Positions 8,164 to 60,661 are shown, numbered from the stretch's first letter. The stretch: DNA of 64,000 bases from a candidate division WWE3 bacterium (GCA_013335095.1 JAAXWF010000002.1:205566-269565), one strand, 5' to 3'. A program made the numbers and translations. The notes: generated by a model not told the origin, from the sequence alone.

Positions 8164-8430
8164 GTGATTAATAGTATGAATGAATCACAAAAACAAGAAG
8201 AATCATTTCGAGTGAACGGCAGCCAACTCCTCGCAAAGTTTGAGGAGCTCATCAAAGAAGGTAACGTTCGCAAAATATCGATTACCGATAAAGACGGCAA
8301 AACCCTTGCGGTTTTCCCACTCACCGTTGGTGTAGTTGGAATGATGCTTGCCCCAGTACTTGCAGCTGTAGGTGCCATTGCCGCACTCGTAACAGACTGT
8401 ACGATTACCGTCGAACGCCAGCAAGATTAA
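8164..8430 (+). CDS. DUF4342 domain protein
   Basis: Strong match to the DUF4342 consensus from memory (F.V.G..LL.K..EL.KEGNVR.I.I.D..G..L...PL..GVVG..LAP.LAA.GAIAAL...C.I.VE). RBS AAGGAGG upstream. Confidence 0.7.
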   Translation: MINSMNESQKQEESFRVNGSQLLAKFEELIKEGNVRKISITDKDGKTLAVFPLTVGVVGMMLAPVLAAVGAIAALVTDCTITVERQQD

Positions 8431-8485
8431 AAGACATTCCATGGTAAGATAGGATTAATAAATCTGCCCAAATGACCTATTACGT

Positions 8486-9109
8486 ATGGGCAGATATAAA
8501 ATAATTCAATCACAATCATTATTCTCGTGGAAACATATTTTGATCGGAGGCGTTCTAGCCGGGGTATCGCTATTAATTGTCCATTCTTTTGTTCCAAATA
8601 GAATTGCCTCATCGCTTGCATTTAATGAATTAAAAACATTTGATACAACGGCTATCGATCCGCACCAACCCGCACTAAATATCACGCCATCGGTGCCAAC
8701 ACTAACAGAGCTTCCAGTCCGAAAAAATTTTCATCTTAAGCCAAGCAGAACTCCAACAGCGACACCCACCATACTTACTCCGAATACGCCTACACCAACA
8801 ACAACACAACCACTTCCGACAGCCACCCAGACACTAACCATAGCCGTACCAACCGAAATACCGCAAACGCCGACTCCAATCATTACGAAAGAGTTTGATC
8901 CATTACCTACAGTAATACCAATTACGCTGATTCCACTTCCAACAATAATTGGAATTCCATGCGGATGCCCTTGTCCACCATGTATTGATCCCGTTTCCGC
9001 TGAATCACTCAAAACTTCTATCTGTGTCTGTCCCCAGTATCAAACAGACTCAATTGGATCAACAATTCGCTGCCTTGATCAAACAGTGGTTTATCCATGC
9101 GCGCTGTAA
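8486..9109 (+). CDS. membrane-anchored Pro/Thr-rich protein with Cys-rich C-terminal module (hypothetical)
   Basis: TM helix near N-terminus, long PT-repeat linker, C-terminus GIPCGCPCPPC...CVCPQYQ...CLDQ...YPC. Confidence 0.4.
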   Translation: MGRYKIIQSQSLFSWKHILIGGVLAGVSLLIVHSFVPNRIASSLAFNELKTFDTTAIDPHQPALNITPSVPTLTELPVRKNFHLKPSRTPTATPTILTPNTPTPTTTQPLPTATQTLTIAVPTEIPQTPTPIITKEFDPLPTVIPITLIPLPTIIGIPCGCPCPPCIDPVSAESLKTSICVCPQYQTDSIGSTIRCLDQTVVYPCAL

Positions 9110-11699: not shown

Positions 11700-11700
11700 T

Positions 11701-11730
11701 ACAAAATATTAGCACCTACTAATATTTTGT
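11701..11730. promoter_or_regulatory. perfect 12-6-12 inverted repeat ACAAAATATTAG-n6-CTAATATTTTGT; candidate ArsR operator
   Basis: Seen directly. Abuts the arsR start and lies in the divergent region towards 11851. ArsR/SmtB operators are 12-2-12-like palindromes overlapping their own promoter. Confidence 0.5.
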
Positions 11731-11850
11731 CAACAACCACTTTAACGCATATGTGATACACATCACATTCCACGATGCCTAAAAATTTGTATAATATGCT
11801 CGCTTTAGCCGCTTTGAAGAAGGGATAGCAAAATACCACAGGAGGCAGCG

Positions 11851-12339
11851 ATGACTGCAACAGTATTAGTGGACAACGCATCTCGCGTATGGCCGTTCGA
11901 GCTCGCCGAAAGCGATATCGAATGTGATGTAGGATGCTGCCTAAACATCGCCCATGCATTTTTCGTAAGGTGCCTAGGAGCCCAGATTGTCGTTCCGATT
12001 GCGGAACGGGAAGGCCAAGCGATCTCGGTAATTCAGCTCCCTGACGGCCAGCGACTGGTTTTAACACCTCGGTGCAGTTGTGAGTTTGTCACCACATCGT
12101 GGCGCACACCAGATCCGCAGCTGCTGATCGTTGAGCTGAACGATCCTCGCCATGCGTGGGTCAGGATCGTCGAGTGGACAACGGCTGTCTTTGGTAATAC
12201 CAATCATGAGCACGGCGGCAATCACGAGCAAACCTATGACTGGCAGGATCTGCCAGGAGATGCGTTTGAGATCGCGATTTACCCGCTCATGAATCGGAAA
12301 CTTGTACTGGTACCAGCACGTGGAGGTGCAACGTGTTAA
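11851..12339 (+). CDS. hypothetical protein (GC-rich)
   Basis: ORF preceded by TTGTATAAT-like -10 and AGGAGG RBS. The R-rich ORFs on the opposite strand look like antisense artefacts. Confidence 0.3.
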   Translation: MTATVLVDNASRVWPFELAESDIECDVGCCLNIAHAFFVRCLGAQIVVPIAEREGQAISVIQLPDGQRLVLTPRCSCEFVTTSWRTPDPQLLIVELNDPRHAWVRIVEWTTAVFGNTNHEHGGNHEQTYDWQDLPGDAFEIAIYPLMNRKLVLVPARGGATC

Positions 12340-12650
12340 TGCCTCGCCCCATTCAAGGTGTTTTAAACACCCTGCGTTCACGGATTGACCAGGCCGATCA
12401 AGCATTGATCGCCGGGTTAACCGAAGCAACGTTAACAACAGCGCATATGTATGAGCGCTGGTTTGGGCCTGGTGTAATATGGATCGATCCACGGACAAAG
12501 GAGACCGTGTTTCGAACCTGGTGGGAACTGGCACAGTGTCGGCTTAAAGTCGGCAATTTGCCACAGGGCTATCAGGTGGGTCGCGAAACCCTGTATATGG
12601 TCCGGCACTGGTGGGGCGGCGTATCGCTCTACCGAGTAGCCAACCAATAA
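12333..12650 (+). CDS. hypothetical protein (GC-rich), overlaps upstream ORF end
   Basis: Tandem ORF overlapping the previous stop. No recognisable motif. Confidence 0.25.
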   Translation: MLMPRPIQGVLNTLRSRIDQADQALIAGLTEATLTTAHMYERWFGPGVIWIDPRTKETVFRTWWELAQCRLKVGNLPQGYQVGRETLYMVRHWWGGVSLYRVANQ

Positions 12651-12797
12651 CAGGTAAGTTAAGCGGTAAACGATATAAAAATTCATAGGATGGGGGATAA
12701 TCTCCCATCCTTTTTGTTATGCGTTTAATTTCCACTATAAGTATGCACAGTTACAGCTTTTATCGACAATCCACCTAAGGACTGATAGTATAAATCG

Positions 12798-16130: not shown

Positions 16131-16490
16131 ATGAGTTCAAGTAATGACCAATTAACTTTACGAATTCGTCGAATCATTGATTTTAGAGATGCTCGTGACT
16201 GGAAGCAGTTTCATAATCCAAAAGATATATCAATTTCTCTTGTTCTTGAAGCGACCGAAGTCTTGGAACATTTTCAATGGAAAAATAAAGAAGAGATGGA
16301 AGAACACATTAAAAAAAATAAAGATTCTATAGGGGAGGAACTTGCCGATGTACTCTACTGGATTCTATTGATGTGCCATGATCTTAAAATAGATATATTA
16401 GCTGCACTTGACGATAAACTAAAAAAAAATGAACAAAAATACCCAGTAGAAAAGGCAAGAGGAAACCATACCAAATACAACAAGTTATGA
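16131..16490 (+). CDS. MazG-like nucleotide pyrophosphohydrolase (all-alpha NTP-PPase)
   Basis: ARDWKQFHNPKDISISLVLEATEVLEHFQWK...EELADVLYWILLMCHDLKIDI carries the EExx(E/D) metal-binding helix pair typical of the small MazG/HisE-like family. A TGTATAAT element sits only 8 nt before the ATG (possible leaderless start). Stop overlaps the next start (ATGA). Confidence 0.8.
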   Translation: MSSSNDQLTLRIRRIIDFRDARDWKQFHNPKDISISLVLEATEVLEHFQWKNKEEMEEHIKKNKDSIGEELADVLYWILLMCHDLKIDILAALDDKLKKNEQKYPVEKARGNHTKYNKL

Positions 16491-18343
16491 TACTTTACCA
16501 AGGTTTAGTAAGCGAATTCACAGAGATAATCGAAAATAACCAAATAATACCTACACTTGAAAAAGAATTTAAAAACAAACTTGGTAGAAAATTACCACCG
16601 AATGAATTTAGTGCCTATACGAACTCGTTATCATTTATAGAAAGAATAATCCGTAAATCAAAGGTAGAGAGTAATTGTGGTGTTTTAATTGAATATATTA
16701 TTCCTTCGACTTCAAATCGAATAGATTTCATAATTACGGGATTGAATCAAAATAAAGCAGAAAACTTTATAATTATTGAACTGAAGCAATGGCAGCAAGC
16801 TGAGGCAACAGAACTTGAAAGTTTAGTAACGACGATGTTAGGAGGGAAATTTAAGGATACAGTTCATCCAAGTTATCAAGCGTCATCGTATAAACAGTTC
16901 TTAAATGATTTTAACCCTCACATCTCAGATGGATCCGTTATAGCGAATGCTTGTGCGTACTTACATAATTATCGAAGAAGTGAATACGAACCGCTATTAG
17001 AGCCCCAATATTCCCACGTTGTGAAAGATGCGCCCCTATTCTTTCAGGGGGACACGGATAAGCTAGCCGATTATATAAATGGTAAAGTGGGCTTAGGAAA
17101 CGGGGCTGCGATCATAGACAAAATAGAGCATGGACCGACTAAACCAAGTAAAAAGCTGATTTCTCATGTATCAAAAATAATAAAAGGTAACAAGGAATTT
17201 ATTTTATTAGATGATCAAAAAGTCGCCTATGAAAAAGCATTGTATTTCGCTCGAAAACCAGAAGATAAATCAGTAATAATAATAAAAGGCGGTCCAGGAA
17301 CAGGAAAATCGGTTATTGCAGTAAATTTACTCGCACAATTATTGAAAGATCAAAGGAATGCTATTTTTGTTGCACCAAATGCATCATTTAGAGAGGTTTT
17401 AGTAAAAAAGCTGGCCCAAGAACATTCGCTAATACGTTTGAAAAATTTATTTAAAGGCTCTAGCGGTTTTGTCGAGATTGAACCAAATACATTTGACGCA
17501 TTAATTGTTGATGAGGCACATCGGCTCAAGCAAAAAGGCGCATTTATGTATCATGGCGATAATCAAATAGAGGATATCGTTAGAAAGTCTAAAACTTCTG
17601 TATTCTTCATTGATGATGATCAGATCATCAGGCCGGATGATGTTGGATCTGTTTCCGAAATTAAAAAAATTGCAGAATTGTATGATGCTAAGGTAGAGGA
17701 GATTGAATTAACAGCACAATTTCGATGCTCTGGAGCTGAGGGCTACATTAACTGGATTAATGATGTTTTACATATAAAAGAGACTGCAAACTTCAATGGT
17801 TGGGATAAATCAACGTTTGATTTTAAAATATTTGACGACCCTAATGAGTTACGTCAAGCAATATTAGAAAAACATAACCAAGGTAACTATTCTCGTATTT
17901 TAGCAGGATATGCGTGGAAATGGTCTTTAGCTAATGAAGGTAATGGAAATGCTGAGATAGAAGATATTGAAATACCTGAATTTGACTTTAAAATGCCTTG
18001 GAACTCAAGGAAGGTCGGTTCGACATGGGCTTTGGATACAGACGGAATCCATCAAGCAGGTTGTATCCATACATCCCAAGGCCTAGAGTTTGACTATGTA
18101 GGTGTCATTGTCGGTAAGGATTTAACTTTCAGTTTTGACACGTATTCATACTCAACGAGCGTGATTGAATATAAAGATGTTGCTGGTAAAAAAGGATTAA
18201 AAGATAGACCTGATGAACTAAATAAATATGTCCGCAACATATATAAAACATTAATGACGCGAGGAATAAAAGGATGCTACGTCTATTTCATGGATGTAAA
18301 TGTAAAAAATCATTTTAAAAATAGGCTTCAAAACTCGCATTAA
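16487..18343 (+). CDS. DUF2075-type protein: N-terminal PD-(D/E)xK-like nuclease-fold region plus P-loop ATPase (Schlafen-helicase-like)
   Basis: N-terminal RIDFIITG...NFIIIELKQW is a D...ExK-like motif. Walker A IIKGGPGTGKS and Walker B LIVDEAHRL are present. Overall architecture and length match DUF2075 (from memory). Hairpin terminator follows immediately. Confidence 0.7.
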   Translation: MILYQGLVSEFTEIIENNQIIPTLEKEFKNKLGRKLPPNEFSAYTNSLSFIERIIRKSKVESNCGVLIEYIIPSTSNRIDFIITGLNQNKAENFIIIELKQWQQAEATELESLVTTMLGGKFKDTVHPSYQASSYKQFLNDFNPHISDGSVIANACAYLHNYRRSEYEPLLEPQYSHVVKDAPLFFQGDTDKLADYINGKVGLGNGAAIIDKIEHGPTKPSKKLISHVSKIIKGNKEFILLDDQKVAYEKALYFARKPEDKSVIIIKGGPGTGKSVIAVNLLAQLLKDQRNAIFVAPNASFREVLVKKLAQEHSLIRLKNLFKGSSGFVEIEPNTFDALIVDEAHRLKQKGAFMYHGDNQIEDIVRKSKTSVFFIDDDQIIRPDDVGSVSEIKKIAELYDAKVEEIELTAQFRCSGAEGYINWINDVLHIKETANFNGWDKSTFDFKIFDDPNELRQAILEKHNQGNYSRILAGYAWKWSLANEGNGNAEIEDIEIPEFDFKMPWNSRKVGSTWALDTDGIHQAGCIHTSQGLEFDYVGVIVGKDLTFSFDTYSYSTSVIEYKDVAGKKGLKDRPDELNKYVRNIYKTLMTRGIKGCYVYFMDVNVKNHFKNRLQNSH

Positions 18344-18361: not shown

Positions 18362-18382
18362 AAAGCCCAATAAGGGCTTTTT
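18362..18382 (+). terminator. rho-independent terminator (AAAAGCCC-AATAA-GGGCTTTTT)
   Basis: Stem-loop followed by a T-run directly after the DUF2075 stop. Confidence 0.6.
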
Positions 18383-18504
18383 CCGACCACGTTCCTAGGT
18401 AGGATGTCCCAACCACGCCACCGTCCGGTGACAGTTCGGAATACAGGTCTTTGTAATTATCATTATAAAGTATTGTGGCAAAGCCCAAACTAATCCCATA
18501 GCAT

Positions 18505-18533: not shown

Positions 18534-18581
18534 CAATTGACCGATTTTCGTGGGCATTCGTGCCCCTACACGGGAGGGATT

Positions 18582-19187
18582 ATGTCCCAGAGCTACGTGA
18601 CCGACGGTCAACGCGGTGTCGTAAAACCCCTGGATCTGGACCCGTATGTCCAGATGTTCATGACCATGCGGCGGATTTTGGCCAACGCCTCTGACAACGA
18701 TGCACAGCAGATCATCCGCGCACAGCTCGAGCTTCTAAGAAGCGCCGAGATTGGACGCATCGAAACGATCTTTAGCGCGTTCATGGCCCGGAACATCCTC
18801 AATACCGCAATCCCGGAAATTCTCCTTGGCATGATCAAGGGGAATACGAAGGACGCGTGGTATATAAGGGAACCAGCTCCACCGGTGCCCGATCCGCGGG
18901 AGGCGGTTGAGCCGATCGACCTGGCACCAATCGTTGAACTCCTCATGACCTTACACGCTAGAGCAGGGGGGTACAGCGAAGATGAAACTAGGGCCGAAAT
19001 CCGTGGCCAACTCACCGACACGCTACGACAGGAGCGGGAGCGAATCCAGCTTCTGATTCGGGGCTTGCAAACGGGCACGGGAGCAAACCTCCACCCACTT
19101 CAAGCACTCGAGCTTCTCCATAAAGCGCTTGAAGGAAAATCCATCGAGATATTTCTAGGCGACGGCCAGATCGGCCCGATCCTGTAA
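18582..19187 (+). CDS. hypothetical protein with two approx 45-aa internal repeats (GC-rich, approx 57%)
   Basis: Start chosen at ATG 18582 (RBS GGGAGGGATT) rather than the ORF-track TTG at 18537, which would lie at or before the predicted TSS. Repeats LDLDPYVQMFMTMRRIL...DAQQIIRAQL and IDLAPIVELLMTLHAR...ETRAEIRGQL. Confidence 0.4.
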   Translation: MSQSYVTDGQRGVVKPLDLDPYVQMFMTMRRILANASDNDAQQIIRAQLELLRSAEIGRIETIFSAFMARNILNTAIPEILLGMIKGNTKDAWYIREPAPPVPDPREAVEPIDLAPIVELLMTLHARAGGYSEDETRAEIRGQLTDTLRQERERIQLLIRGLQTGTGANLHPLQALELLHKALEGKSIEIFLGDGQIGPIL

Positions 19188-22422: not shown

Positions 22423-23136
22423 ATGCGTATCGGATCGCACAAGGTCACAGTGGGCGAACTCGCAGTCAGCACGGCGGTATTTCTGCTCCTGGCGAATCTG
22501 GTGGTTGGTTTTCTTAGCTGGAGGACCCAGTCTGAGATTCTCCAGCAAAACGTACGCCTCCAAGCGTATCAGAATAATCAATCGTTGATCCTACGGCAGG
22601 TGAACCAACGCCAAACGGCTCTACTGGAGATGCCGCATCAGCCCGAAGGCTGGACGCCAATTGGCAACCTGGAGCCACGCGCCAATATCAGCGTCGAGTC
22701 ACTCAAGGGATACACCTTCGGAACGACCTTCTATACCGGGCGCACGCTCACACCTGGCGAGGTGTCGTGGCTCATTACCGAGGGCCCCCAAAACGGGGTT
22801 CAGCTCATGACGGGCGCCATCGGCTTTATCGGGGGGAGCTCGTCGACCCATGGTCTGTTCGAAGTTACCCAGAATGGAAGTCTGTCTTGGCATGATAGCA
22901 AAGGGGCGATAACGCCCCTGGCAATAACATTGCCGCTTGGACAGGAGATCTTTGTCACAACCAACGGGGTTGTTGCCGGGATGGAGTTTTCCGAAGTGCA
23001 GCGGATGGTTCTGTACATTGATCCGCACTACCATCAGCTATCGGCCGCGTACATTCCGGTTCCAAAGAATCAGCCGAGACCTGGTATCACATCCAGGCCA
23101 ATAATCTATATTAAGGACTCGGCTCTCGGCGAGTAG
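22423..23136 (+). CDS. membrane-anchored hypothetical protein (GC-rich, approx 55%)
   Basis: Single N-terminal TM (LAVSTAVFLLLANLVVGFL). No recognisable domain. Followed by a GGCGGTGG-GCTTTTGT-CCACCGC hairpin terminator at approx 23168-23190. Confidence 0.4.
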   Translation: MRIGSHKVTVGELAVSTAVFLLLANLVVGFLSWRTQSEILQQNVRLQAYQNNQSLILRQVNQRQTALLEMPHQPEGWTPIGNLEPRANISVESLKGYTFGTTFYTGRTLTPGEVSWLITEGPQNGVQLMTGAIGFIGGSSSTHGLFEVTQNGSLSWHDSKGAITPLAITLPLGQEIFVTTNGVVAGMEFSEVQRMVLYIDPHYHQLSAAYIPVPKNQPRPGITSRPIIYIKDSALGE

Positions 23137-23362
23137 AATCACACGAGGGGACGGTTTTCGTCGAATTGGCGGTGGGCTTTTGTCCACCGCTTTTACCAAT
23201 TTATTACATTGTTTTCAAATATTTCTTTTTTTCAACGACGAAACTTAGACCTATGACGGTGAGGGACAGCCTGTCATTCGTTGAGTTTTAACTCTCCAAT
23301 ACTGTCACGCATAATCATTTTTCCCATTGACTTTTATATATAATCAAAGATATAAGTAAATA

Positions 23363-24076
23363 ATGGAATCACGTAATGGATTTGGACTAGTCGAAATAAT
23401 TATATTGGTAACCTTACTGACAGCTATCGGAGTAGGTGTATGGGCATATGTTTTGTCTGGTGCAAAATCAAAAGATGGAAATGATGTTTCTTTGACTCCG
23501 ACTCAGGTGGTTACCATCTCTCCATCAATCACACCAAAACCAACCGTTTTTCCAACAATTACACCAATACCTACAATTGATAATTCCGTTTATGAAGGAT
23601 GGAACGAATATAAAAATGATGAGCTGGGGATTTCGTTTAGATATTTAAATAATTGGTATATACCTCAAGATGAATCTATGGTGAAAGGTCAATACAATTA
23701 TTACTTAGACGATGAAGTTAGAAATAATTTTCTAGGGGGACTAGAACTTGATGGTGGTAAAGACAAAACGGACTTAGTCAGACGTCCGTTACTTTTACTC
23801 AGTGTTTTTAATAATGTAGAAGGACTTTCGGTAAAAGCATGGCTCGAAAAGCACGATATTAATACAAAGAAAAATCCTGATGAGATACCAGTAACGTTAT
23901 ACCCACGGCTAATAGCTGGACGGCAAGTTTACTTTAATGGCACAGAGGAACTTTACTTTGAAAATAACGGAAAAATTTATGGAATTGGTATGGGATATAC
24001 TACGTACGCTATTTATCCCGAAGATGGATTTCAGGAAATTTTTGATAAGTTACTTGATTCTGTCGAACTTTATTAA
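23363..24076 (+). CDS. prepilin-type N-terminus protein (pseudopilin-like)
   Basis: MESRNGFGLVEIIILVTLLTAIGVGVWAYVL is a G|F..E prepilin motif. Followed by a PT linker and globular domain. Confidence 0.5.
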   Translation: MESRNGFGLVEIIILVTLLTAIGVGVWAYVLSGAKSKDGNDVSLTPTQVVTISPSITPKPTVFPTITPIPTIDNSVYEGWNEYKNDELGISFRYLNNWYIPQDESMVKGQYNYYLDDEVRNNFLGGLELDGGKDKTDLVRRPLLLLSVFNNVEGLSVKAWLEKHDINTKKNPDEIPVTLYPRLIAGRQVYFNGTEELYFENNGKIYGIGMGYTTYAIYPEDGFQEIFDKLLDSVELY

Positions 24077-24155
24077 GCGTATTTTCCTACTTGACTCGAC
24101 TTATATATAGTAATATATTACATATGTACCTTTAGTTTCTATTAAGGAGGTTCGT

Positions 24156-25643
24156 ATGGGTTTCCGTAATCGGATTGGGTTACTGGCGTTTGGTCTCATT
24201 GCAACGGTGGCAGTGATGATCTCTATGAATGCAGGGTCTCTTTTTGCCCAAACCTGCCAATGCGCCGATTGGGCAAAAGAGAAGCGGCCGGACATCTATA
24301 GTAAGATTGCAGGGGCTGGATGCGCCGTTAATTGGCCCAATAAGATGAGAGCGAATGGGTATCCCCAACAGGTTGGAACCATTCCAATGAAAGGCTCTCT
24401 TGTTGTATTCAGCCAAGGAGCACATGATGCGGATTTTAGTTGTGGTCATGTCGCCTACGTCGAGAATGTAAACTCAGATGGCACATTCGCTATATCTGAG
24501 AAGGGTAGGCCGGCCGGATCATGCATTGTTAAATACGATCGCACGAAGCTAGATGTTAGAACGGGAGTGGAGTTTCTTTATGGAACAAACGAAACTCCGA
24601 TTCCACGCCTAGAACTTACGGGTGATGTGACGATGAGTGCGTACACGGTGACGGGAGGTCAGTCGGTGAGTTTTTCGGTTCCGGTGAAAAACTGGGGCGG
24701 GAATCTGACCATGGCTGATTCGTATCTGGATGTCACCACGTCAAACGGAAGCATTTGGAAGGCGACTGGGGTGAACCAAAACATCGCTGCCAACGGTACG
24801 ACAACACTCACGTTTTCGGGTCAGCTCTGGCAAACGCCGGGTGGCACATGGACGGTTCATGAGGTATCGTACAAAGACAGCGGAGGAGTCTGGCGCCAGG
24901 TGGGTCGGGGAGACAACCGGATTTTAGCTCGGTCGTTTACCGTCATACCACCCGATACACAGCCACCCACGGATGTCTTCATCCTTGAGCCGGCAAACGG
25001 TAGCACGCTGGGATTGGGAACCCATGGGGTGCGGATATCAGCCAAAGATACAGTAGGGGTAACGACCGTCACGCTGTATCTGTACACTCAACCAAGCATG
25101 GGGGCTTCGTTTCAGATGAATTCACTTCCTGTGCCTCTCCAATCTGGAACAGTGCAGGATGGTATCTGGCGAACCGAGATTGATCCTGGCCAATATGGTG
25201 CTGGGAGTTATTCGATCTTTAAATATCAGGTAATTGCCAAGGATGCGGCTGGTAACTCAACCACCTCTGGGTTACAACAGTACACGCTGGATCGTCGAGA
25301 CCTGCCACCATCGGTGGTAACAATTAATGAACCAGCATCAGGAGTAACCATTATCGGTGAACCACACGCGGTGATGATCCATGCGGTGGATGCGCAGGCG
25401 GTATCGTACGTAACCTTGTACGTATACTATCCTGAAACAACCGGTGGTAGTGACGTGATGCATGTATACAACGTACCTTTCCATCACGGAACTGCTCAAG
25501 ACGGATACTGGCGGATGGAACACTATCCGTTTAGTAATCATGCCGTGCCCACAACCAACATGAAGTTTCAGGCACGTGCATGTGATAGCGCCAATCAGTG
25601 TAGTTTTTCTGGACTCAGTTCAGGGATTACGCTGCAACGGTAG
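24156..25643 (+). CDS. secreted CHAP-domain peptidoglycan hydrolase with two tandem approx 110-aa beta-sandwich repeats
   Basis: Signal peptide. CHAP signature (QTCQCADWAKEKRPDIY ... FSCGHVAYVENVNSDGTFAISEKG) with Cys/His catalytic pair. Repeats PPTDVFILEPANGSTLG...YTLDRR and PPSVVTINEPASGVTII...ITLQR. Confidence 0.65.
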   Translation: MGFRNRIGLLAFGLIATVAVMISMNAGSLFAQTCQCADWAKEKRPDIYSKIAGAGCAVNWPNKMRANGYPQQVGTIPMKGSLVVFSQGAHDADFSCGHVAYVENVNSDGTFAISEKGRPAGSCIVKYDRTKLDVRTGVEFLYGTNETPIPRLELTGDVTMSAYTVTGGQSVSFSVPVKNWGGNLTMADSYLDVTTSNGSIWKATGVNQNIAANGTTTLTFSGQLWQTPGGTWTVHEVSYKDSGGVWRQVGRGDNRILARSFTVIPPDTQPPTDVFILEPANGSTLGLGTHGVRISAKDTVGVTTVTLYLYTQPSMGASFQMNSLPVPLQSGTVQDGIWRTEIDPGQYGAGSYSIFKYQVIAKDAAGNSTTSGLQQYTLDRRDLPPSVVTINEPASGVTIIGEPHAVMIHAVDAQAVSYVTLYVYYPETTGGSDVMHVYNVPFHHGTAQDGYWRMEHYPFSNHAVPTTNMKFQARACDSANQCSFSGLSSGITLQR

Positions 25644-25767
25644 GTAACAGTGTCTGGGAGGTACATCGTATGATGTGCCCCCCGACACGCTTCTTTCTTA
25701 ATCGCCCGACGGGACTGATCCTCCTGTTGGGCTCTATTTATTGTACCAAAATAGCGCACGTTTTCGC

Positions 25768-26379
25768 TTAAAAAAGGCCAATCTGTTTGGCTTGGGGTTG
25801 CAGATCGGCGGGGTAGGAAAAATCTAGGTCGAGAGTACGTTGAGTATTCCACTTGTCGGTATATTTAACGTGCTTATGTGACATCACGTAATCATACAGA
25901 TCACGCGTTAATGCAACATCCATCTCACAGTACTTTTGTAATTTTTCTAAACTTTCGGGTGTATGTTCGCGCCAATATACAACGGCATTACTACCGACAT
26001 CGCTCTTAGCACTTCCAAGGGTATCGGTCACCAATGAATTCAAGCTGATACGATGTCCGGCTTTTTCTTTAAATTTGTCCATGATGTCAAAGTGAGGTAG
26101 GGCACTTAAGTTAAAAAAGGCATACGGTTGTAAAACAACCGCGTCAAAATATTTTGAATTAAATCCGATGACCCGATCCGCTCGCTGAAAAATCGGCCAC
26201 ATCGGTGAAAAATCATTTTCCCAAAAACTCTCCATCTTCCCTTCGATCTCACGGCCATTTTCATCGACAGTACGAGAATATACGCAGACAATTGAAACTC
26301 CTAAATCTTGAATTTTATTAGGATCAATATCGGCAAACAATCTTTGTGTTTCGATATCAAAAAAGACTTCGTGTTTCAT
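25768..26379 (-). CDS. DEDDy-type 3'-5' exonuclease-like protein (DnaQ/RNase H-like fold)
   Basis: FFDIETQ (Exo I, DxE) ... FNSKYFD (Exo II-like) ... YCEMDVALTRDLYDY (Exo III YxxxD). Confidence 0.5.
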   Translation of the reverse strand: MKHEVFFDIETQRLFADIDPNKIQDLGVSIVCVYSRTVDENGREIEGKMESFWENDFSPMWPIFQRADRVIGFNSKYFDAVVLQPYAFFNLSALPHFDIMDKFKEKAGHRISLNSLVTDTLGSAKSDVGSNAVVYWREHTPESLEKLQKYCEMDVALTRDLYDYVMSHKHVKYTDKWNTQRTLDLDFSYPADLQPQAKQIGLF

Positions 26380-26465
26380 AAAGAAATTATTATAACGTGA
26401 ATATAAAGACTAAACAAAAATGGGCACACCTCTCAGTGTGCCCGGTAATTTTACCAACCTTACAA

Positions 26466-27269
26466 CTACAACTCAAACAGCATCCGCTGTCGATTGGGAT
26501 ACTCGGGGTCAAGGCCAGCGTAGTAAAACCCGAGCTGAATATCTGGGTTGTACATGACTGGCAGGACCATAATCCCGAGCGACTGTGCAGCCTCTATAAA
26601 CGCGGTCTCAACGTGTGGCTCGCAGCAAAACTGCACCGCCACCAGGCGTTCACCCGGCTGAATCCAATTGCTTAGCTGACTGGTAATCCCATCCCTTAGA
26701 CTCCGATATGCCGAAGAATTGTCCCGGGCAGAGCCATCCACCACTTTGATATAAAGATCGGTGTAATCACCTTCGGCATCGTGACGTAGATGGGGATCGG
26801 CCGAATACGCCGCGTTGACCATCATCCGCCGAGGCAAGGCAGGGATAAGACCGACACCATCTCGAATATGGATAGTTGATGCAAGCTGCATCTCTATCAT
26901 CCGAGAAAGCACCCGGACAGCTTCATTAACATCGGTGGTGAGATCAACAACCTGCTCACCGATTAAGAAGTACCTCGCAGAAAGCCAAGGCAGTTCTTCC
27001 CCGACGATACTGTTGATTGCCGACCTCATTCGATCACCGAAATCGGCCGAGACCGACTCAGTGAAAGCAAGGGAGGTAATAACGCCATCGTGCCTGGCCA
27101 GCTCCATCTGGAATGCTGGGAAATCAGACAATCGTGACAGCCGAAAGACCACTCCATATGCATCATTGAAGAGGCCAAGGCGAGTAGCCCCAGCTTCAAC
27201 AAAGTGAGCATCGACAAAGCCCCAATTTAGAGGCTTCCGCAGAGAACACATAGCCTGGATGATAACCAT
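26466..27269 (-). CDS. hypothetical protein (GC-rich, approx 56%)
   Basis: Long ORF. The opposite-strand ORF is R/S-rich. No recognisable domain. Confidence 0.35.
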   Translation of the reverse strand: MVIIQAMCSLRKPLNWGFVDAHFVEAGATRLGLFNDAYGVVFRLSRLSDFPAFQMELARHDGVITSLAFTESVSADFGDRMRSAINSIVGEELPWLSARYFLIGEQVVDLTTDVNEAVRVLSRMIEMQLASTIHIRDGVGLIPALPRRMMVNAAYSADPHLRHDAEGDYTDLYIKVVDGSARDNSSAYRSLRDGITSQLSNWIQPGERLVAVQFCCEPHVETAFIEAAQSLGIMVLPVMYNPDIQLGFYYAGLDPEYPNRQRMLFEL

Positions 27270-27487
27270 CGTTCCTCCTTATGAGGTGTGCATATACACG
27301 CCTCATTCCGCTAATAACGATACAAACATTATACAATTATAGGTCTACACCTGTAAGCTATTACAAAAAATGACTAGGTGGCGATAAGACCGAAGAAGGG
27401 AATATGTTCATACTATAAGTACAGTTATAGAAAAAAACACGACAGGGTTGAGATAAATCGAATTGAAGGTAAAGTTCTTCTAAAAAG

Positions 27488-27575
27488 AAAGTGCCGGGCC
27501 CCACAGTCTCTTTCCTTTTCAGGTAGAGTAAAGTGGGTCCCGGCATTGGGTGTTTCTTTTTATGTTTTGTTAGGT
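27488..27575 (+). ncRNA. candidate structured RNA element / long-loop hairpin with U-tract (within an 806-bp hairpin-dense intergenic region)
   Basis: GTGCCGGGCCCCAC ... GTGGGTCCCGGCAT form a 13/14-bp stem with a 28-nt loop followed by TTTCTTTTTATGTTTTG. See the finding for the whole region. Strand uncertain. Confidence 0.25.
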
Positions 27576-28075
27576 GTTTTTGTGATACGTTGTATCACCG
27601 ATTTGGATTTTAAAAGAGGGTCATGGTGATACCATGATTACTCTGATAAACAGAGTGACTCTTTTTTTCCGAATACGGTGTGCTTTTTATGAGGGAGTAT
27701 CGTCGTAACGATACCAGATCGCGCTCCTCATAAGAGCAGTATCAAAAAGCGTAGGCGCAACCCGTAAACAATTAATGAGATTCTGAGAGGTCAGAATCAA
27801 ACGTCTTGTTTGGGGTGTTAGCCTGACTAACAAAATAAGAATGTGCGAATTGAGTGATAAATCACTCAGTGTATTGTTTTAGAGTAGGTGTTCTACTTCG
27901 AATTGTCTTCGTAGTAGAGCCCTGTGCTACTAAAACGTTACTTTATATCACAAGAATAAATATGTGTCAACAAGTAATTTTTGAAATACCTTCACCAAAA
28001 GAATGATTCATTGTCACATCAGCATATTCGTACTGAAGAGTTGACATTTTCAATATTTCACCGACAATAAAGAAC

Positions 28076-28612
28076 ATGCAGGAGCAAGAAAAACCAACCG
28101 CACCGATTTCTAAATCTTTAATAATCGGAAGCGGACTCGTATTGCTGACAATTATCGGCGGTTTAGGATATATGTACTGGGACGTAAGTAATAAGGGTAA
28201 CGTCCTCAGCGAACAATCGACTCAAGCGACTCCCACACGAACCCCAACTCCAACAAAACGTCCAGAACAGATGAACGCAGACGATAAAATACAAGCTGAA
28301 CTTAAAATTGCAGCCGAAGCGTTTGAAAAATGCGCTATTGATAACCAGGATCTATTTGAAAAAGGAAAATGCGATTCAATTGCCAACTTAACCAAATCAA
28401 ATTACTACAAGCAACAGTATGTAAATACGAATTTTAAGGTTGTTGGAACTGATGACCATAAAGTAGGAATGATCTTTGCAAAAGCTGATGATCAAAAGAT
28501 TACGTGTGAATATACCCCACCCAAAGGCGGCGGTAATAATCGATACCACGTGTACCGAAGCATCGCAAAAGTTTTACGAATTGAATGTTGGTCGGGAGAA
28601 CCTCCACTGTAA
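28076..28612 (+). CDS. TM-anchored exported hypothetical protein
   Basis: N-terminal TM (LIIGSGLVLLTIIGGLGYMYW), T/P linker, Cys-containing globular C-terminus. Confidence 0.4.
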   Translation: MQEQEKPTAPISKSLIIGSGLVLLTIIGGLGYMYWDVSNKGNVLSEQSTQATPTRTPTPTKRPEQMNADDKIQAELKIAAEAFEKCAIDNQDLFEKGKCDSIANLTKSNYYKQQYVNTNFKVVGTDDHKVGMIFAKADDQKITCEYTPPKGGGNNRYHVYRSIAKVLRIECWSGEPPL

Positions 28613-28620
28613 AACCCCTA

Positions 28621-29904
28621 TTACTTATTTTTCCATGGATTTTGAGAGCTTATTGCTCCTAAATAGGGTCGTGATAGCAAGAACTGTTTTAATATAGACC
28701 GAATTTCGTCCTCGGTTATCATCGATGCTATCTGTACGTACTCTTGGGGTACAACTATTCGATCTTCATAAAAAAGCTCGGTTAAAAACATATCTGCAAT
28801 ATCCGAGATTGAATCAAATCGCATCATTGTACGCAGTCCCATATATTTACGAGCTCGATCGACATCTTCTGATGGGATTGGTTCACTAATAAACGAATTA
28901 AGCACCTGATTAATAACCGCGACGACCTCATCGACCTGGTCATTTGCAACTGAGGCGGCGACTTCAAAGATCCCGATATTCGGTAAAAACCAATAATCAC
29001 TATCTATCGAATAGACTAAACCGAGGCGCTGTCTTAATTCACGAAATAAACGGGCTTGGTGTGATCCACCGATCAGATATGAAGCTAAGTTTAATGCAAT
29101 TTCTTGACGCAAAGTCCATTGATCGGTATCAGTAATCATCCAACGCAGTACTAAACCGGTACTTTTAGATGCCATCTTATGCCAAATATATTGATCTTGT
29201 TTTGGTTTTGGAGGAATTATCGGCACATTAATGCGAGGATGCGGGGTTCGTGATTCAAGAATTGTAGAAAAGCGCTCAAGTACATGGTCGCAGTCGAATC
29301 GTCCGACGACTCCCACCACCATTTGCGCTGGAGTAATAAACCGATCGTGCAATGAGCGTAAACCCGCACACGTTGCTTTCGATATAGTCTCTAGCGATCC
29401 AATCGGTGATTGATTATATATATGCGAAGGTCCCAGCATCCGTTTTGAATATTTTTTCTCAAATAGTCGTGAAGGACTGAAATTAAGATCTTTGTATTCC
29501 TGAGTGATTACTTTTATCTCTCGTTGAAGTTCGGATTCGGGGAAAGTCGGGTTAAATATCCGTTCTTCCAGCAATGTTAATGCCGGCTCAATCGATTGGT
29601 AGGGAAGTTTAAACAAATACACAATACTTCGTCCAGAGGTTACCGCATTACTACTAATTGCATGTGATTCTTCAAATTCATTCAATGTTTCAATATTGGG
29701 AAACAAAGCCGTTCCCTGAAACGACATGTGTTCAAGTAGATGAAACAGGCCTAACTGAGAACGCGATTCATACCAAGAACCAGCATGGAACATTACCCGA
29801 ATTACAACAGTCCGAACTTCTTCCATTGGATACAACAAAATATTTGCATCATGGACGACGGTATGAAAAGGTTTCTTGACCGCATCAAAAACTGTTTGGT
29901 CCAT
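28621..29904 (-). CDS. M16 family (pitrilysin/insulinase-like) zinc peptidase
   Basis: Inverted zinc motif HxxEH in FHLLEHMSFQGT near the N-terminus. Length and two-domain layout typical of M16. Confidence 0.75.
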   Translation of the reverse strand: MDQTVFDAVKKPFHTVVHDANILLYPMEEVRTVVIRVMFHAGSWYESRSQLGLFHLLEHMSFQGTALFPNIETLNEFEESHAISSNAVTSGRSIVYLFKLPYQSIEPALTLLEERIFNPTFPESELQREIKVITQEYKDLNFSPSRLFEKKYSKRMLGPSHIYNQSPIGSLETISKATCAGLRSLHDRFITPAQMVVGVVGRFDCDHVLERFSTILESRTPHPRINVPIIPPKPKQDQYIWHKMASKSTGLVLRWMITDTDQWTLRQEIALNLASYLIGGSHQARLFRELRQRLGLVYSIDSDYWFLPNIGIFEVAASVANDQVDEVVAVINQVLNSFISEPIPSEDVDRARKYMGLRTMMRFDSISDIADMFLTELFYEDRIVVPQEYVQIASMITEDEIRSILKQFLLSRPYLGAISSQNPWKNK

Positions 29905-29908
29905 ATTT

Positions 29909-30298
29909 TTATGAGAAAAAATCCAAATAAATACCCCAAATCAGGGCGATGGCAGACATTATAAAGATAAATATCGAGTTAACTTTTTCTTTTGATGAAA
30001 GTAGGGTACCAAAAATATAATCCATTGCTTCTTTTTCGTCAGTTGTTAATCCCGAAAGCGAGTTCACTTTACTTTTTAAATCATATTGTTGAATGAGCTT
30101 GGCCCGTTTAGCCGAGATTTGATATCGATGAACAAAGTAAAAAATAAATCCGATTGTTCCAATATACCACGCAATTTGAGACCAAAATGTATTGTAATAG
30201 TTTAGAACGACGATAATCCGATACGCAAAAGTCGCGATAATACCCATCCAAAAATAAAATAAGCGGACGGGCTTTGAATGATATGTCGGCTTTTCCAT
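29909..30298 (-). CDS. small integral membrane protein (hypothetical)
   Basis: Three or four predicted TM helices. No motif. Confidence 0.3.
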   Translation of the reverse strand: MEKPTYHSKPVRLFYFWMGIIATFAYRIIVVLNYYNTFWSQIAWYIGTIGFIFYFVHRYQISAKRAKLIQQYDLKSKVNSLSGLTTDEKEAMDYIFGTLLSSKEKVNSIFIFIMSAIALIWGIYLDFFS

Positions 30299-30315
30299 CT
30301 TTGGATTATCTTACA

Positions 30316-31068
30316 CTAAATTCGTAACGCATAATAGGTTGTAATTATAAGCGTTATCGCTATCGCAATAATTAGAATGACAATAGTTCGTCTTCCTGGG
30401 CGAAATATTTTTTGCTGTCGCTCTAAATCAATAAACCAAATTTTCTTCTGCGTCTTATACACTAAAATAGCCAAACCGACTAACGCTAATAGGAATATTA
30501 CCGGAAGGATCCCGACAAAGAACACTTTTCCAAAGATAGCGACCATCCCATTAATGATGATAAAAACCAACCGCATTTCGGATGTTCCAAAACCATAGTA
30601 GGAGATTCGAAAATCGCCGGTAACTCCAAACTCCAGAAAGGCACTAACCATAAATCCACTAAATAAGGCCAAGGTAAAGAACAATACGTAGTACCATTCC
30701 GGCGGAATTAAAAACGAATACCCAATCAGAATCGCGCACAAGAAAATATAATCAAAGAAATGGTCCATGAAGTATCCCCACTTAACTAATCCGGTATTGC
30801 GATATCGGCCGACCGCACCATCGAGCATATCTGCAATATGTTGGGATGCGATTGCTGCAGAGGTTAGCCATAACCACGCTTCATTAGAATTAGCCAAATA
30901 CCCCGTAAGGATAATTAATGCGGAGAATGGAATCGTTAATAACGTTAAATGATATGTTTCGATACCTTTTGGTACAAGCGGAGTTGCCCATTTAATAAAC
31001 CGCTTCTCTAGGCTTTGTAACATATACGTATCGACTTTTTCGGCACCGCGAAACTTAGTATCTCCCAC
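30316..31068 (-). CDS. CDP-alcohol phosphatidyltransferase family protein
   Basis: DMLDGAVGRYRNTGLVKWGYFMDHFFD fits D-x2-D-G-x2-[AG]-R...G-x3-D-x3-D. Polytopic membrane protein. Confidence 0.6.
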   Translation of the reverse strand: MGDTKFRGAEKVDTYMLQSLEKRFIKWATPLVPKGIETYHLTLLTIPFSALIILTGYLANSNEAWLWLTSAAIASQHIADMLDGAVGRYRNTGLVKWGYFMDHFFDYIFLCAILIGYSFLIPPEWYYVLFFTLALFSGFMVSAFLEFGVTGDFRISYYGFGTSEMRLVFIIINGMVAIFGKVFFVGILPVIFLLALVGLAILVYKTQKKIWFIDLERQQKIFRPGRRTIVILIIAIAITLIITTYYALRI

Positions 31069-59138: not shown

Positions 59139-59846
59139 TTATGCAGGCTGGTGATCTACAGACTGTGCAGCCGAAGGGGAAAGAATCCCAAGGACCACCT
59201 GCCGATCTTTGATCATCGGCTCGATGTGATCCCGGTAGAATAACACCACTTGAGGCCCCAGTCCCTCAACAACGGGCGCACCGACAAACGAGTCGATGAT
59301 TTGGTCCCGCTCGACGCGGCTTGCCAACCGGAAATGATTAGGGTCGAGGATCTCGACCGGGCACACCCCGGCAATGCCCTGGTAATCGACCGACCAGAGC
59401 ACCATATGCCCAAGCACCCGCTGCACGACCCCGTGATATCCAAACACCAGGGGGTTGCGGGCGTGCTTATACACGATGACGTCACCGTGCTTCCACTCGA
59501 CGTCAGAGAACCGCATAGATGCCATGGTTACGGCACGGCTGCGCTGATAAAGCTCCTCAGCGCCCCGGGCGAGGTCGATCTTCTGGCGCATCACCATCCG
59601 CGCGTGCCAGCTAGCCGCGAAGCAGCCGACAGAGAACAACGCCATGCCAATAAGATCGAGAGAATCGACCGGGATCCAACCCGGTAGTGGCTCTCGAAGA
59701 AAAACAACGAACACGAAGCTCACCACGAGCCTTACGAGGGCCACGCCCATCGTAAAGTACCCAACAAACCCCCAGACACTGCCGGGACCTTCATCGGACG
59801 AAAGATTGGCATCAGCCATCTCTCCACGGGTAATGGATGTAGACAT
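59139..59846 (-). CDS. paralog 1 of a 2-TM membrane protein family (island cassette), unknown function
   Basis: Starts MSTS after GGAGG-n4-ATG. Two N-terminal TMs. C-terminal domain with W-x-[HND]-G-D-[VI]-[ILV], Y-[HG]-G, LxLW motifs shared with three downstream paralogs. Approx 58% GC. Confidence 0.6.
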   Translation of the reverse strand: MSTSITRGEMADANLSSDEGPGSVWGFVGYFTMGVALVRLVVSFVFVVFLREPLPGWIPVDSLDLIGMALFSVGCFAASWHARMVMRQKIDLARGAEELYQRSRAVTMASMRFSDVEWKHGDVIVYKHARNPLVFGYHGVVQRVLGHMVLWSVDYQGIAGVCPVEILDPNHFRLASRVERDQIIDSFVGAPVVEGLGPQVVLFYRDHIEPMIKDRQVVLGILSPSAAQSVDHQPA

Positions 59847-59893
59847 ACATGTCCTCCAGGATAAAACGGCTAGACCCGATGTCTAGCATTGTA

Positions 59894-59904
59894 GAACAAC
59901 TTAA
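59894..59904 (-). promoter_or_regulatory. extended -10 promoter TCTGGTATAAT for paralog 1 (family-conserved)
   Basis: The same T[CT]TG[AG]TATA[AC]T element recurs approx 45-50 nt upstream of each of the four paralog start codons: 59894-59904, 60716-60725, 61550-61560, 62393-62403. Confidence 0.5.
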
Positions 59905-59998
59905 TTATACCAGACCTATAATAGTTAGAGTTGTATAAAAAATGACCCGCATCTTAATTTGATACGGGTCGATATTACGAGAGTAAGAACAAGGCAGA

Positions 59999-60661
59999 CT
60001 AGGCCTGTGTGAGACTGCATGCACCATCGCTTGGAGTAATTGCTCCAAGCATATAAAAAATCGTTTCATCCATAAATAGCTGATCCAGCGCGTAGCGGGG
60101 CGACTCGGTGCCATAGAGCGTATCAAGCGGCCGATTCACCATCCAGCCTAATATCTGGACTCGCTCGGCTGGAGTTGCTAAACGATAGTCAAAAAAGTGC
60201 CGATCATTCACATCAGTCCAGCTGATGCAACCATTTAGTGCCGGACCCCACAAGAGCAAGATGCCAAAGCGTAGTTCAACGATCCCGTAGTTACCTGGAA
60301 TCCATTGTTCAAAAGGTTCCTTCAACAAGATCACATCACCGTTGGCCCATTCCGGATCGAGTGAAAGATCGTCACCGGGTGTTGTAGTACGTGTTTTATT
60401 ATCACGCATCTCAACCCTGAGGATCACGGTAATCAGTAGGCTAACAAGGCTAACACCAATAGCCATTGCTACTTGTTCCGAACGACGATACTGGAGATCG
60501 ATAATCCACAGTTGGTCAGGCCAATAGATGAGGATTGTTTGACCGATGGTTTTAGCGAAAACCATAACTCCGGCGACAATCATCATGCCGACACTAATGG
60601 CTGATGAAGTCACGACCAGAAAGGTAGAAAAAATCTTCCACAACCGTTGCCCCGAAGACAT
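59999..60661 (-). CDS. paralog 2 of 2-TM family
   Basis: True start ATG 60661 (MSSGQRLWKIF) preceded by AGGAGGAAGACT. The ORF-track TTG start 60703 is probably not used. Own promoter TTGATATACT and own terminator (59944-59970). Confidence 0.6.
   Translation of the reverse strand: MSSGQRLWKIFSTFLVVTSSAISVGMMIVAGVMVFAKTIGQTILIYWPDQLWIIDLQYRRSEQVAMAIGVSLVSLLITVILRVEMRDNKTRTTTPGDDLSLDPEWANGDVILLKEPFEQWIPGNYGIVELRFGILLLWGPALNGCISWTDVNDRHFFDYRLATPAERVQILGWMVNRPLDTLYGTESPRYALDQLFMDETIFYMLGAITPSDGACSLTQA

Follow-up and report, generated by a model that had tools for sequence, protein, structure and literature searches.

What is the function of an 806-bp stretch of DNA, packed with hairpins and left empty by public annotation, in a bacterium of the Candidate Phyla Radiation (CPR), whose members have tiny, densely packed genomes? 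The stretch occupies positions 27270 to 28075 of a 64,000-nucleotide segment of the genome of a candidate division WWE3 bacterium (GCA_013335095.1 JAAXWF010000002.1:205566-269565), which is referred to below as the window. It separates two divergent genes, a 267-aa open reading frame (ORF) on the minus strand (26466-27269), whose product is identical to NCBI protein HGA91_03840, and a 178-aa ORF on the plus strand (28076-28612), which corresponds to HGA91_03845. An earlier note on this DNA had described the gap as the longest non-coding stretch of the window, located between divergent genes and saturated with hairpins, and had proposed three roles for it: a structured non-coding RNA (ncRNA) or small RNA, a riboswitch-like leader for the downstream gene, or an array of regulator binding sites. 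The description was correct on all of these points, the second-largest gap of the window being 412 nt in length. The three proposals fared differently, as detailed below.

The eight inverted repeats of the earlier list were all present, with some coordinates displaced by 3 to 6 nt. From left to right, these are ATGAGGTGTG/CACGCCTCAT (27281-27290/27297-27306, one G-T pair), TGCCGGGCCCCAC/GTGGGTCCCGGCA (27492-27504/27533-27545, one mismatch), the perfect hairpins GTGATAC-GTT-GTATCAC (27582-27598) and TCATGGT-GAT-ACCATGA (27621-27637), TTATGAGG/CCTCATAA (27687-27694/27726-27733), which encloses the hairpin GTATCGT-CGTA-ACGATAC (27697-27714), the hairpins GATTCTGA-GAGG-TCAGAATC (27779-27798) and TGAGTGAT-AA-ATCACTCA (27851-27868), and the repeat TAGTAG...CTACTA (27912-27932). 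Two additional perfect hairpins, absent from that list, were found at 27640-27656 and 27816-27832. In total, the gap contains nine perfect stems of at least 6 bp with loops of 2 to 12 nt, in comparison to 2.5 ± 1.6 in dinucleotide shuffles (none of 500 shuffles reached nine), and five perfect stems of at least 7 bp, in comparison to 0.66 in shuffles. By hairpin count, no 800-nt stretch of the window is denser than this region, which ties for first place. Another stretch rich in hairpins, at 11700-12700, was considered as a possible paralogue and rejected, since it consists of two high-GC genes and a terminator; no second copy of the element was detected in the 64 kb.

Folding energies led to the same picture. 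Over positions 27470-27990, the plus strand folded at -191.9 kcal/mol versus -122.3 ± 5.8 kcal/mol in shuffled sequences (z = -11.9) and the minus strand at -160.9 kcal/mol (z = -9.7). The whole gap had z-scores of -7.9 and -10.6, and the other ten of the 11 intergenic gaps of at least 150 nt in the window all scored -4.6 or above. A sliding scan limited the folding signal to approximately 27450-27990, the flanking coding sequence being ordinary, and the scan of the whole window did not reveal any second stretch with comparably extended structure. Weaker and shorter outliers were observed at 8200-8550, 25600-25750 and 59600-60050 (150-nt windows, z-scores between -3 and -5). The claim that the density of structure exceeds chance expectation is thus borne out, both by the count of perfect stems and by a fold z-score of approximately -11. 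The GC content of the element (0.38) does not rise over the genome background, unlike that of many structured RNAs in AT-rich genomes.

Scoring of transcription signals on both strands of the window (128 kb) assigned the top σ70-type match, which is a match to the consensus only, to a promoter-like site within the gap on the minus strand (27970-27942). The site consists of TTGACA (27970-27965), a 17-nt spacer and an extended -10 element, TGa-TATAAA, with the hexamer at 27947-27942. Six nucleotides separate it from the first helix of the folded segment, downstream on that strand, and transcription is predicted to start on the opening base of this helix (G27936 or U27935). The -10 hexamer TATAAA does not have the highly conserved final T, and a promoter tool omitted the site from its scan because the last base of the -10 element is A rather than T. 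The second and third best σ70-type matches (18505, plus strand; 11733, minus strand) are located upstream of real genes, indicating that the score picks plausible promoters. An extended -10 promoter (TGgTACAAT) also precedes the tRNA-Phe gene of the window, indicating that promoters of this type are in use in this genome.

At the other end of the folded segment, the minus strand contains the strongest terminator-like site found on either strand of the window (27546-27482; -31.0 kcal/mol versus -20.9 kcal/mol for the runner-up). It comprises a GC-rich hairpin (27546-27492) followed by C-UUUCUUUUU at 27490-27482. The U-tract that the earlier note had placed after this hairpin adjoins it on the minus strand only, being displaced by 8 nt on the plus strand, where the sequence UUGGGUG precedes the U-run and makes the hairpin a poor terminator. 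Several other top terminator-like matches, such as those at 26420, 12712, 56420 and 61577, are located just beyond the 3' ends of ORFs. Thus, the folded segment is framed on the minus strand by the best promoter-like and the best terminator-like sites of the 64 kb, correctly ordered.

The segment bracketed in this manner (27482-27936, minus strand) corresponds to a predicted non-coding transcript of approximately 455 nt, with a minimum free energy (MFE) of -150.5 kcal/mol versus -89.2 ± 5.6 kcal/mol in shuffles (z = -11.0). It does not contain any ORF of at least 12 codons preceded by a Shine-Dalgarno sequence. The only ORF of at least 20 codons located wholly inside the transcript on the minus strand is a 48-aa ORF starting with TTG, which has no Shine-Dalgarno sequence in a genome where such sequences are clear, AAGGAGG being one of them. 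On balance, and from a case built on one sequence, we lean towards the view that the gap holds an independent minus-strand gene for a hairpin-rich ncRNA of this size. Transcription would start at approximately 27936, at the foot of the first helix, from the near-consensus σ70-type promoter (27970-27942); the RNA would fold into some six extended stem-loop domains arranged in a chain, each of 30 to 85 nt; and transcription would stop at the strong intrinsic terminator (27546-27482). The rest of the gap would consist of the separate promoters of the two flanking genes, both of which are ORFans.

In the predicted fold of the minus-strand RNA, domain 1 is a 5'-terminal extended stem-loop of 61 nt (27876-27936) that comprises the helices 27936-27930/27882-27876, 27918-27913/27897-27892 and 27911-27908/27902-27899. 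Domain 2 (27843-27874) is a hairpin whose core is the perfect stem at 27851-27868. Domain 3 (27752-27825) is an irregular stem-loop of 74 nt capped by the perfect 8-bp stem at 27779-27798, with an apical loop that reads CCUC on the minus strand (27790-27787). Domain 4 (27681-27738) is a 58-nt stem-loop with TTATGAGG/CCTCATAA as the outer and GTATCGT/ACGATAC as the inner helix, the latter closed by a UACG loop of the UNCG class on the minus strand. Domain 5 (27596-27680) is an 85-nt three-way junction, in which a stem (27596-27618/27659-27680) bears two perfect hairpins (27621-27637 and 27640-27656). The small perfect hairpin at 27582-27598 follows; its arms could pair with 27625-27632 or with 27739-27744 instead, leading to competing structures. 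The terminator hairpin is capped by a GAAA loop on the minus strand (27520-27517). Prediction yielded the same helices for either strand, as well as with DNA parameters. The stem TTATGAGG/CCTCATAA is common to domain 4 and to the hairpin in the predicted 5' untranslated region of the 267-aa gene; a meaningful sharing of this stem was rejected, since repeated 8-mers are no commoner than expected by chance.

The structural signal is mainly local. Limiting the span of base pairs to 80 nt or less already gave a z-score of -10.1, pairs spanning more than 40 nt had a z-score of -4.7, showing that spans of 40 to 80 nt do contribute, and the energy gained from pairs more than 80 nt apart was not above that of shuffles (z = +1.2). 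The MFE fold contains helices of 9 to 12 bp that close the centre of the molecule, but this nested long-range architecture was rejected, since pairs over such distances provided no gain over shuffles. These results point to a chain of extended stem-loops and leave a compact globular RNA unsupported.

We compared the region with known RNA families and with available sequences. The scan with Rfam that the earlier note had suggested did not assign the gap to any family. At gathering thresholds, Rfam 15 identified in the whole window only two tRNAs and one DUF3800-IX RNA motif, all located elsewhere. The DUF3800-IX match (18381-18449, minus strand; 51.3 bits for a gathering score of 36.8, E = 3.8e-8) sits in a 193-nt gap between the ORFs 16487-18343 and 18537-19187. 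With the threshold relaxed to E ≤ 10, region 27150-28200 yielded four chance matches to eukaryotic models (12 to 19 bits versus thresholds of 69 to 100). The models included those for RNase P, tmRNA, SRP, 6S, OLE, GOLLD, ROOL, HEARO, raiA and RNAIII, as well as riboswitches, group I and II introns and ribozymes. ARAGORN did not detect any tmRNA.

Two other functions were rejected for this region. A chromosomal replication origin was discarded because 27270-28075 contains no TTATCCACA-like DnaA box with up to one mismatch; DnaA boxes occur at chance level in the whole window, and no clear change in the sign of the GC skew was seen at the gap. A type I toxin-antitoxin system of the hok/sok type was discarded because the RNA does not contain any small hydrophobic ORF with a ribosome-binding site.

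Searches for relatives of the nucleotide sequence identified one other contig carrying the gap region, which is identical in sequence. Comparison by blastn with phage and plasmid collections found nothing similar to the gap, and scans of contigs for exact patterns, covering viral, metagenome and genome sequences, returned chance matches only, without extended similarity. Two JGI metagenome contigs (L058, 5090-5279; L059, 5180-5369) carry a tandem array with a 34-nt period and at least six copies that contains the 20-mer GATTCTGAGAGGTCAGAATC, and their similarity to the window ends with this 20-mer. At the protein level, neither flanking ORF had relatives among 5.8 billion proteins. The neighbouring M16 peptidase had relatives of up to 34% identity, located in unrelated gene neighbourhoods, and a scan of genome contigs with this peptidase found nothing. 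A literature search found no mention of this element and no published work on regulatory RNAs of CPR bacteria. Thus, the element is novel, lying outside every described RNA family and having no relatives among the sequences searched.

On the minus strand, the RNA is followed by the terminator and then by the 267-aa gene, an arrangement that would also fit an attenuator or a long structured leader at the 5' end of that gene. The promoter at 27970 would then drive the gene, and the upstream hairpins would control conditional read-through of the terminator (27546-27482), a control for which the alternative pairings among GUGAUAC/GUAUCAC copies (27582-27599, 27625-27632 and 27739-27744) offer a possible basis. 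However, the very strong terminator is located 210 nt upstream of the ORF, and the gene has a control region of its own outside the RNA (27274-27357, minus strand), with a promoter-like site, CTTACA-18-TATAAT (27357-27328), between terminator and ORF, and the Shine-Dalgarno sequence AAGGAGG (27280-27274). The predicted 5' untranslated region of the gene contains, directly upstream of AAGGAGG, the 26-nt near-palindrome ATGAGGTGTGCATATACACGCCTCAT (27306-27281), which might act as an operator or as a 5' hairpin with a stabilising effect. Further evidence against a leader comes from the sole homologue of the 267-aa protein, a remote one recovered by an exhaustive HMMER search (P0026, 272 aa, 29% identity) and encoded by a Logan contig (SRR21121628; L005, 1962 nt) from an organism of approximately 55% GC. 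Alignment with this homologue backs the start of the 267-aa ORF at 27269. The homologous gene is divergent from a HEAT-repeat gene and is preceded by a spacer of just 135 nt, indicating that the structured region does not travel with this gene family. No known riboswitch or leader model matches the region. Taking these elements together, we consider a leader of the 267-aa gene improbable, and a cis-acting role of the predicted RNA unlikely.

The question of the strand, which bears on the preferred reading of an independent minus-strand RNA gene, was less straightforward. Over positions 27478-27936, the raw folding energy is lower on the plus strand (-178.9 versus -150.5 kcal/mol), which is rich in G and U and forms 19 G-U pairs versus 5 on the minus strand. 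This could suggest a structured RNA or a long leader running rightwards from approximately 27483, downstream of a promoter-like site, TTGAGA-16-TAAAGT (27448-27475), to the 178-aa gene. Weak terminator-like hairpins of the plus strand at 27638-27658 and 27849-27870, and an AU-rich hairpin followed by U5 at 27937-27983, are in keeping with such a transcript. We rejected the G-U asymmetry as proof of the plus strand, however, since correction for composition resulted in equal z-scores on the two strands (-11.06 versus -11.02). The promoter of the plus-strand transcript fits the consensus at only 9 of 12 positions and would direct transcription straight into the GC-rich hairpin, and the strongest promoter-like and terminator-like signals belong to the minus strand. 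Of the four tetraloops formed by the latter, two are of stabilising classes (GAAA at the tip of the terminator, UACG at that of domain 4), versus none on the plus strand, a reading made post hoc. The composition of unpaired bases did not discriminate between the strands. Weighed jointly, the evidence favours the minus strand for the candidate RNA, and a plus-strand RNA appears unlikely.

For the 178-aa gene itself, a promoter-like site, TTGACA-16-GACAAT (28041-28068, plus strand), stops 8 nt short of the start codon (ATG, 28076), indicating that the structured region is not its leader. This position, and the lack of a Shine-Dalgarno sequence, suggest a probably leaderless mRNA, even though the genes nearby rely on strong Shine-Dalgarno sequences. 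The proposal of a riboswitch-like leader for the downstream gene was therefore not retained: in addition to this separate promoter-like site, the strongest promoter-like and terminator-like sites bracket the fold on the minus strand, and no riboswitch or leader family of Rfam matched at E ≤ 10. Among the three roles initially put forward, the structured ncRNA is the one that we favour, on the strand opposite to that implied. The 178-aa ORF, which encodes a protein with a membrane-anchor-like N-terminus, is convergent with the minus-strand gene for the M16 peptidase. Their ends are 8 nt apart (28612-28621), with no terminator-like hairpin between them, and their transcripts would run antisense into each other.

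The gap might also be a non-functional spacer, in which hairpins were generated by template-switch (quasi-palindrome) mutations or were left as debris of imported DNA between recently acquired ORFans. The unusually perfect stems, which are made almost entirely of Watson-Crick pairs, would fit a recent mutational origin, the long-range helices are not significant, and neither a homologue of the gap nor close relatives of the flanking ORFans were found. Two observations argue against this explanation, to which we give little credence. The window is compact, with no other gap of more than 412 nt, and a z-score of -11 combined with the best promoter-like and terminator-like sites, ordered on one strand, would be hard to obtain by accident.

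Least probable of all, in our assessment, is an element acting at the DNA level, either through hairpins formed when the DNA is supercoiled or single-stranded (as in an oriT, a single-strand origin or the recombination site of an integrated mobile element) or through palindromic protein-binding sites, since the nearly perfect Watson-Crick palindromes, the equal folding of both strands, the DNA-parameter fold (z = -14.3, stronger relative to shuffles than the RNA-parameter fold) and a neighbourhood that looks horizontally acquired (high-GC ORFans and a phage-like PolB-exonuclease homologue) are offset by the lack of any relaxase, replication-initiator, integrase or transposase match among the neighbouring ORFs scanned (22423-31068), by iterons and direct repeats that do not exceed chance, by palindromes that are all different and hence lack a common binding site, and by a promoter and terminator bracket that suits an RNA gene better. 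The array of regulator binding sites proposed in the earlier note is likewise not supported, given the diversity of the palindromes, the spacers that have the size of loops and the shared 8-mers at chance level.

The genes surrounding the predicted minus-strand RNA point to an accessory region. The 267-aa gene (26466-27269) and the gene at 24156-25643, which encodes a CHAP and Big_7 cell-wall hydrolase-like protein, have GC contents of approximately 0.50 to 0.55 versus approximately 0.40 around them. At 11851-12650, a pair of overlapping ORFs (162 and 105 aa) show the same GC content (approximately 0.50 to 0.55). This composition suggests that the three high-GC regions are horizontally acquired islands, and the predicted RNA probably sits in accessory, horizontally acquired DNA. 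The 267-aa protein did not match any entry of Pfam, PHROG, PADLOC or NCBIfam, and a scan of viral contigs with its alignment returned no match. Its AlphaFold model was poor (pLDDT of 61) and gave no meaningful fold match; it contains beta-alpha-beta units and showed weak partial matches to small alpha/beta domains such as those of acylphosphatase and PII.

How might such an RNA act? Activity of the promoter, stability and abundance of the RNA and its action in trans are all inferred. The likeliest action would be that of a stable, abundant, trans-acting RNA, as a multi-hairpin regulator resembling RNAIII or as a protein-binding scaffold. Duplex-folding target prediction against the 60 translation-initiation regions of the window was uninformative as to targets. 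More tentatively, and with rather less assurance than for the RNA gene itself, the element may represent a new class of large multi-hairpin ncRNAs, of which it would be the first member and to date the sole one. It would then be specific to a deep-branching WWE3 lineage, be transcribed at high levels from the minus strand, and act in trans, as a regulator or as the scaffold of a ribonucleoprotein, in an island of accessory genes. If the proposal is true, a 455-nt RNA endowed with the best promoter-like and terminator-like signals of the window would mean that CPR bacteria devote part of their limited genomes to large RNAs specific to a lineage. The element would provide a concrete object for metatranscriptomics or for synthesis and probing.

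Comparison with known systems places the candidate closer to some groups than to others. Like BOX, REP/BIME and Correia elements and MITEs, it consists of non-coding intergenic DNA packed with stable stem-loops. Unlike these repeats, it is present as a single copy in 64 kb, is not enclosed by terminal inverted repeats, forms several domains rather than one long hairpin, and is bracketed by promoter-like and terminator-like sites. With riboswitch and attenuator leaders, it shares competing pairings followed by an intrinsic terminator upstream of an ORF on the same strand, that of 267 aa. It differs from them by the 210 nt and the separate promoter-like site that precede this ORF, by the lack of a match to any aptamer model, and by the fact that the region is missing from the only homologous 267-aa gene.

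The large bacterial RNAs OLE, GOLLD, ROOL, HEARO and raiA, whose functions are unknown or came to light only recently, are long, highly structured and non-coding, and often reside in accessory or prophage-like DNA, as proposed for the candidate; they were likewise found as unusually long structured intergenic regions. The candidate does not match any of their covariance models, even at E ≤ 10, and a long-range tertiary architecture is not supported for it. Furthermore, conservation and covariation over many genomes underlie the definition of these classes, whereas the candidate is represented by one sequence.

The closest functional analogy, which does not imply membership of the family, is with RNAIII of Staphylococcus aureus (Rfam RF00503), a multi-hairpin regulatory RNA of 514 nt that has its own promoter, ends with a hairpin acting as a terminator, and pairs with Shine-Dalgarno sequences through C-rich apical loops. 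The candidate differs from RNAIII by the lack of similarity in sequence or to the covariance model, by the lack of an embedded peptide gene comparable to hld, by the presence of one C-rich loop only, and by its occurrence in an unrelated phylum. As predicted, it nevertheless resembles RNAIII in its size (approximately 455 versus 514 nt), in its stand-alone organisation, in its chain of stem-loops ending in a terminator, and in the exposure of a C-rich apical loop (CCUC, 27790-27787, minus strand).
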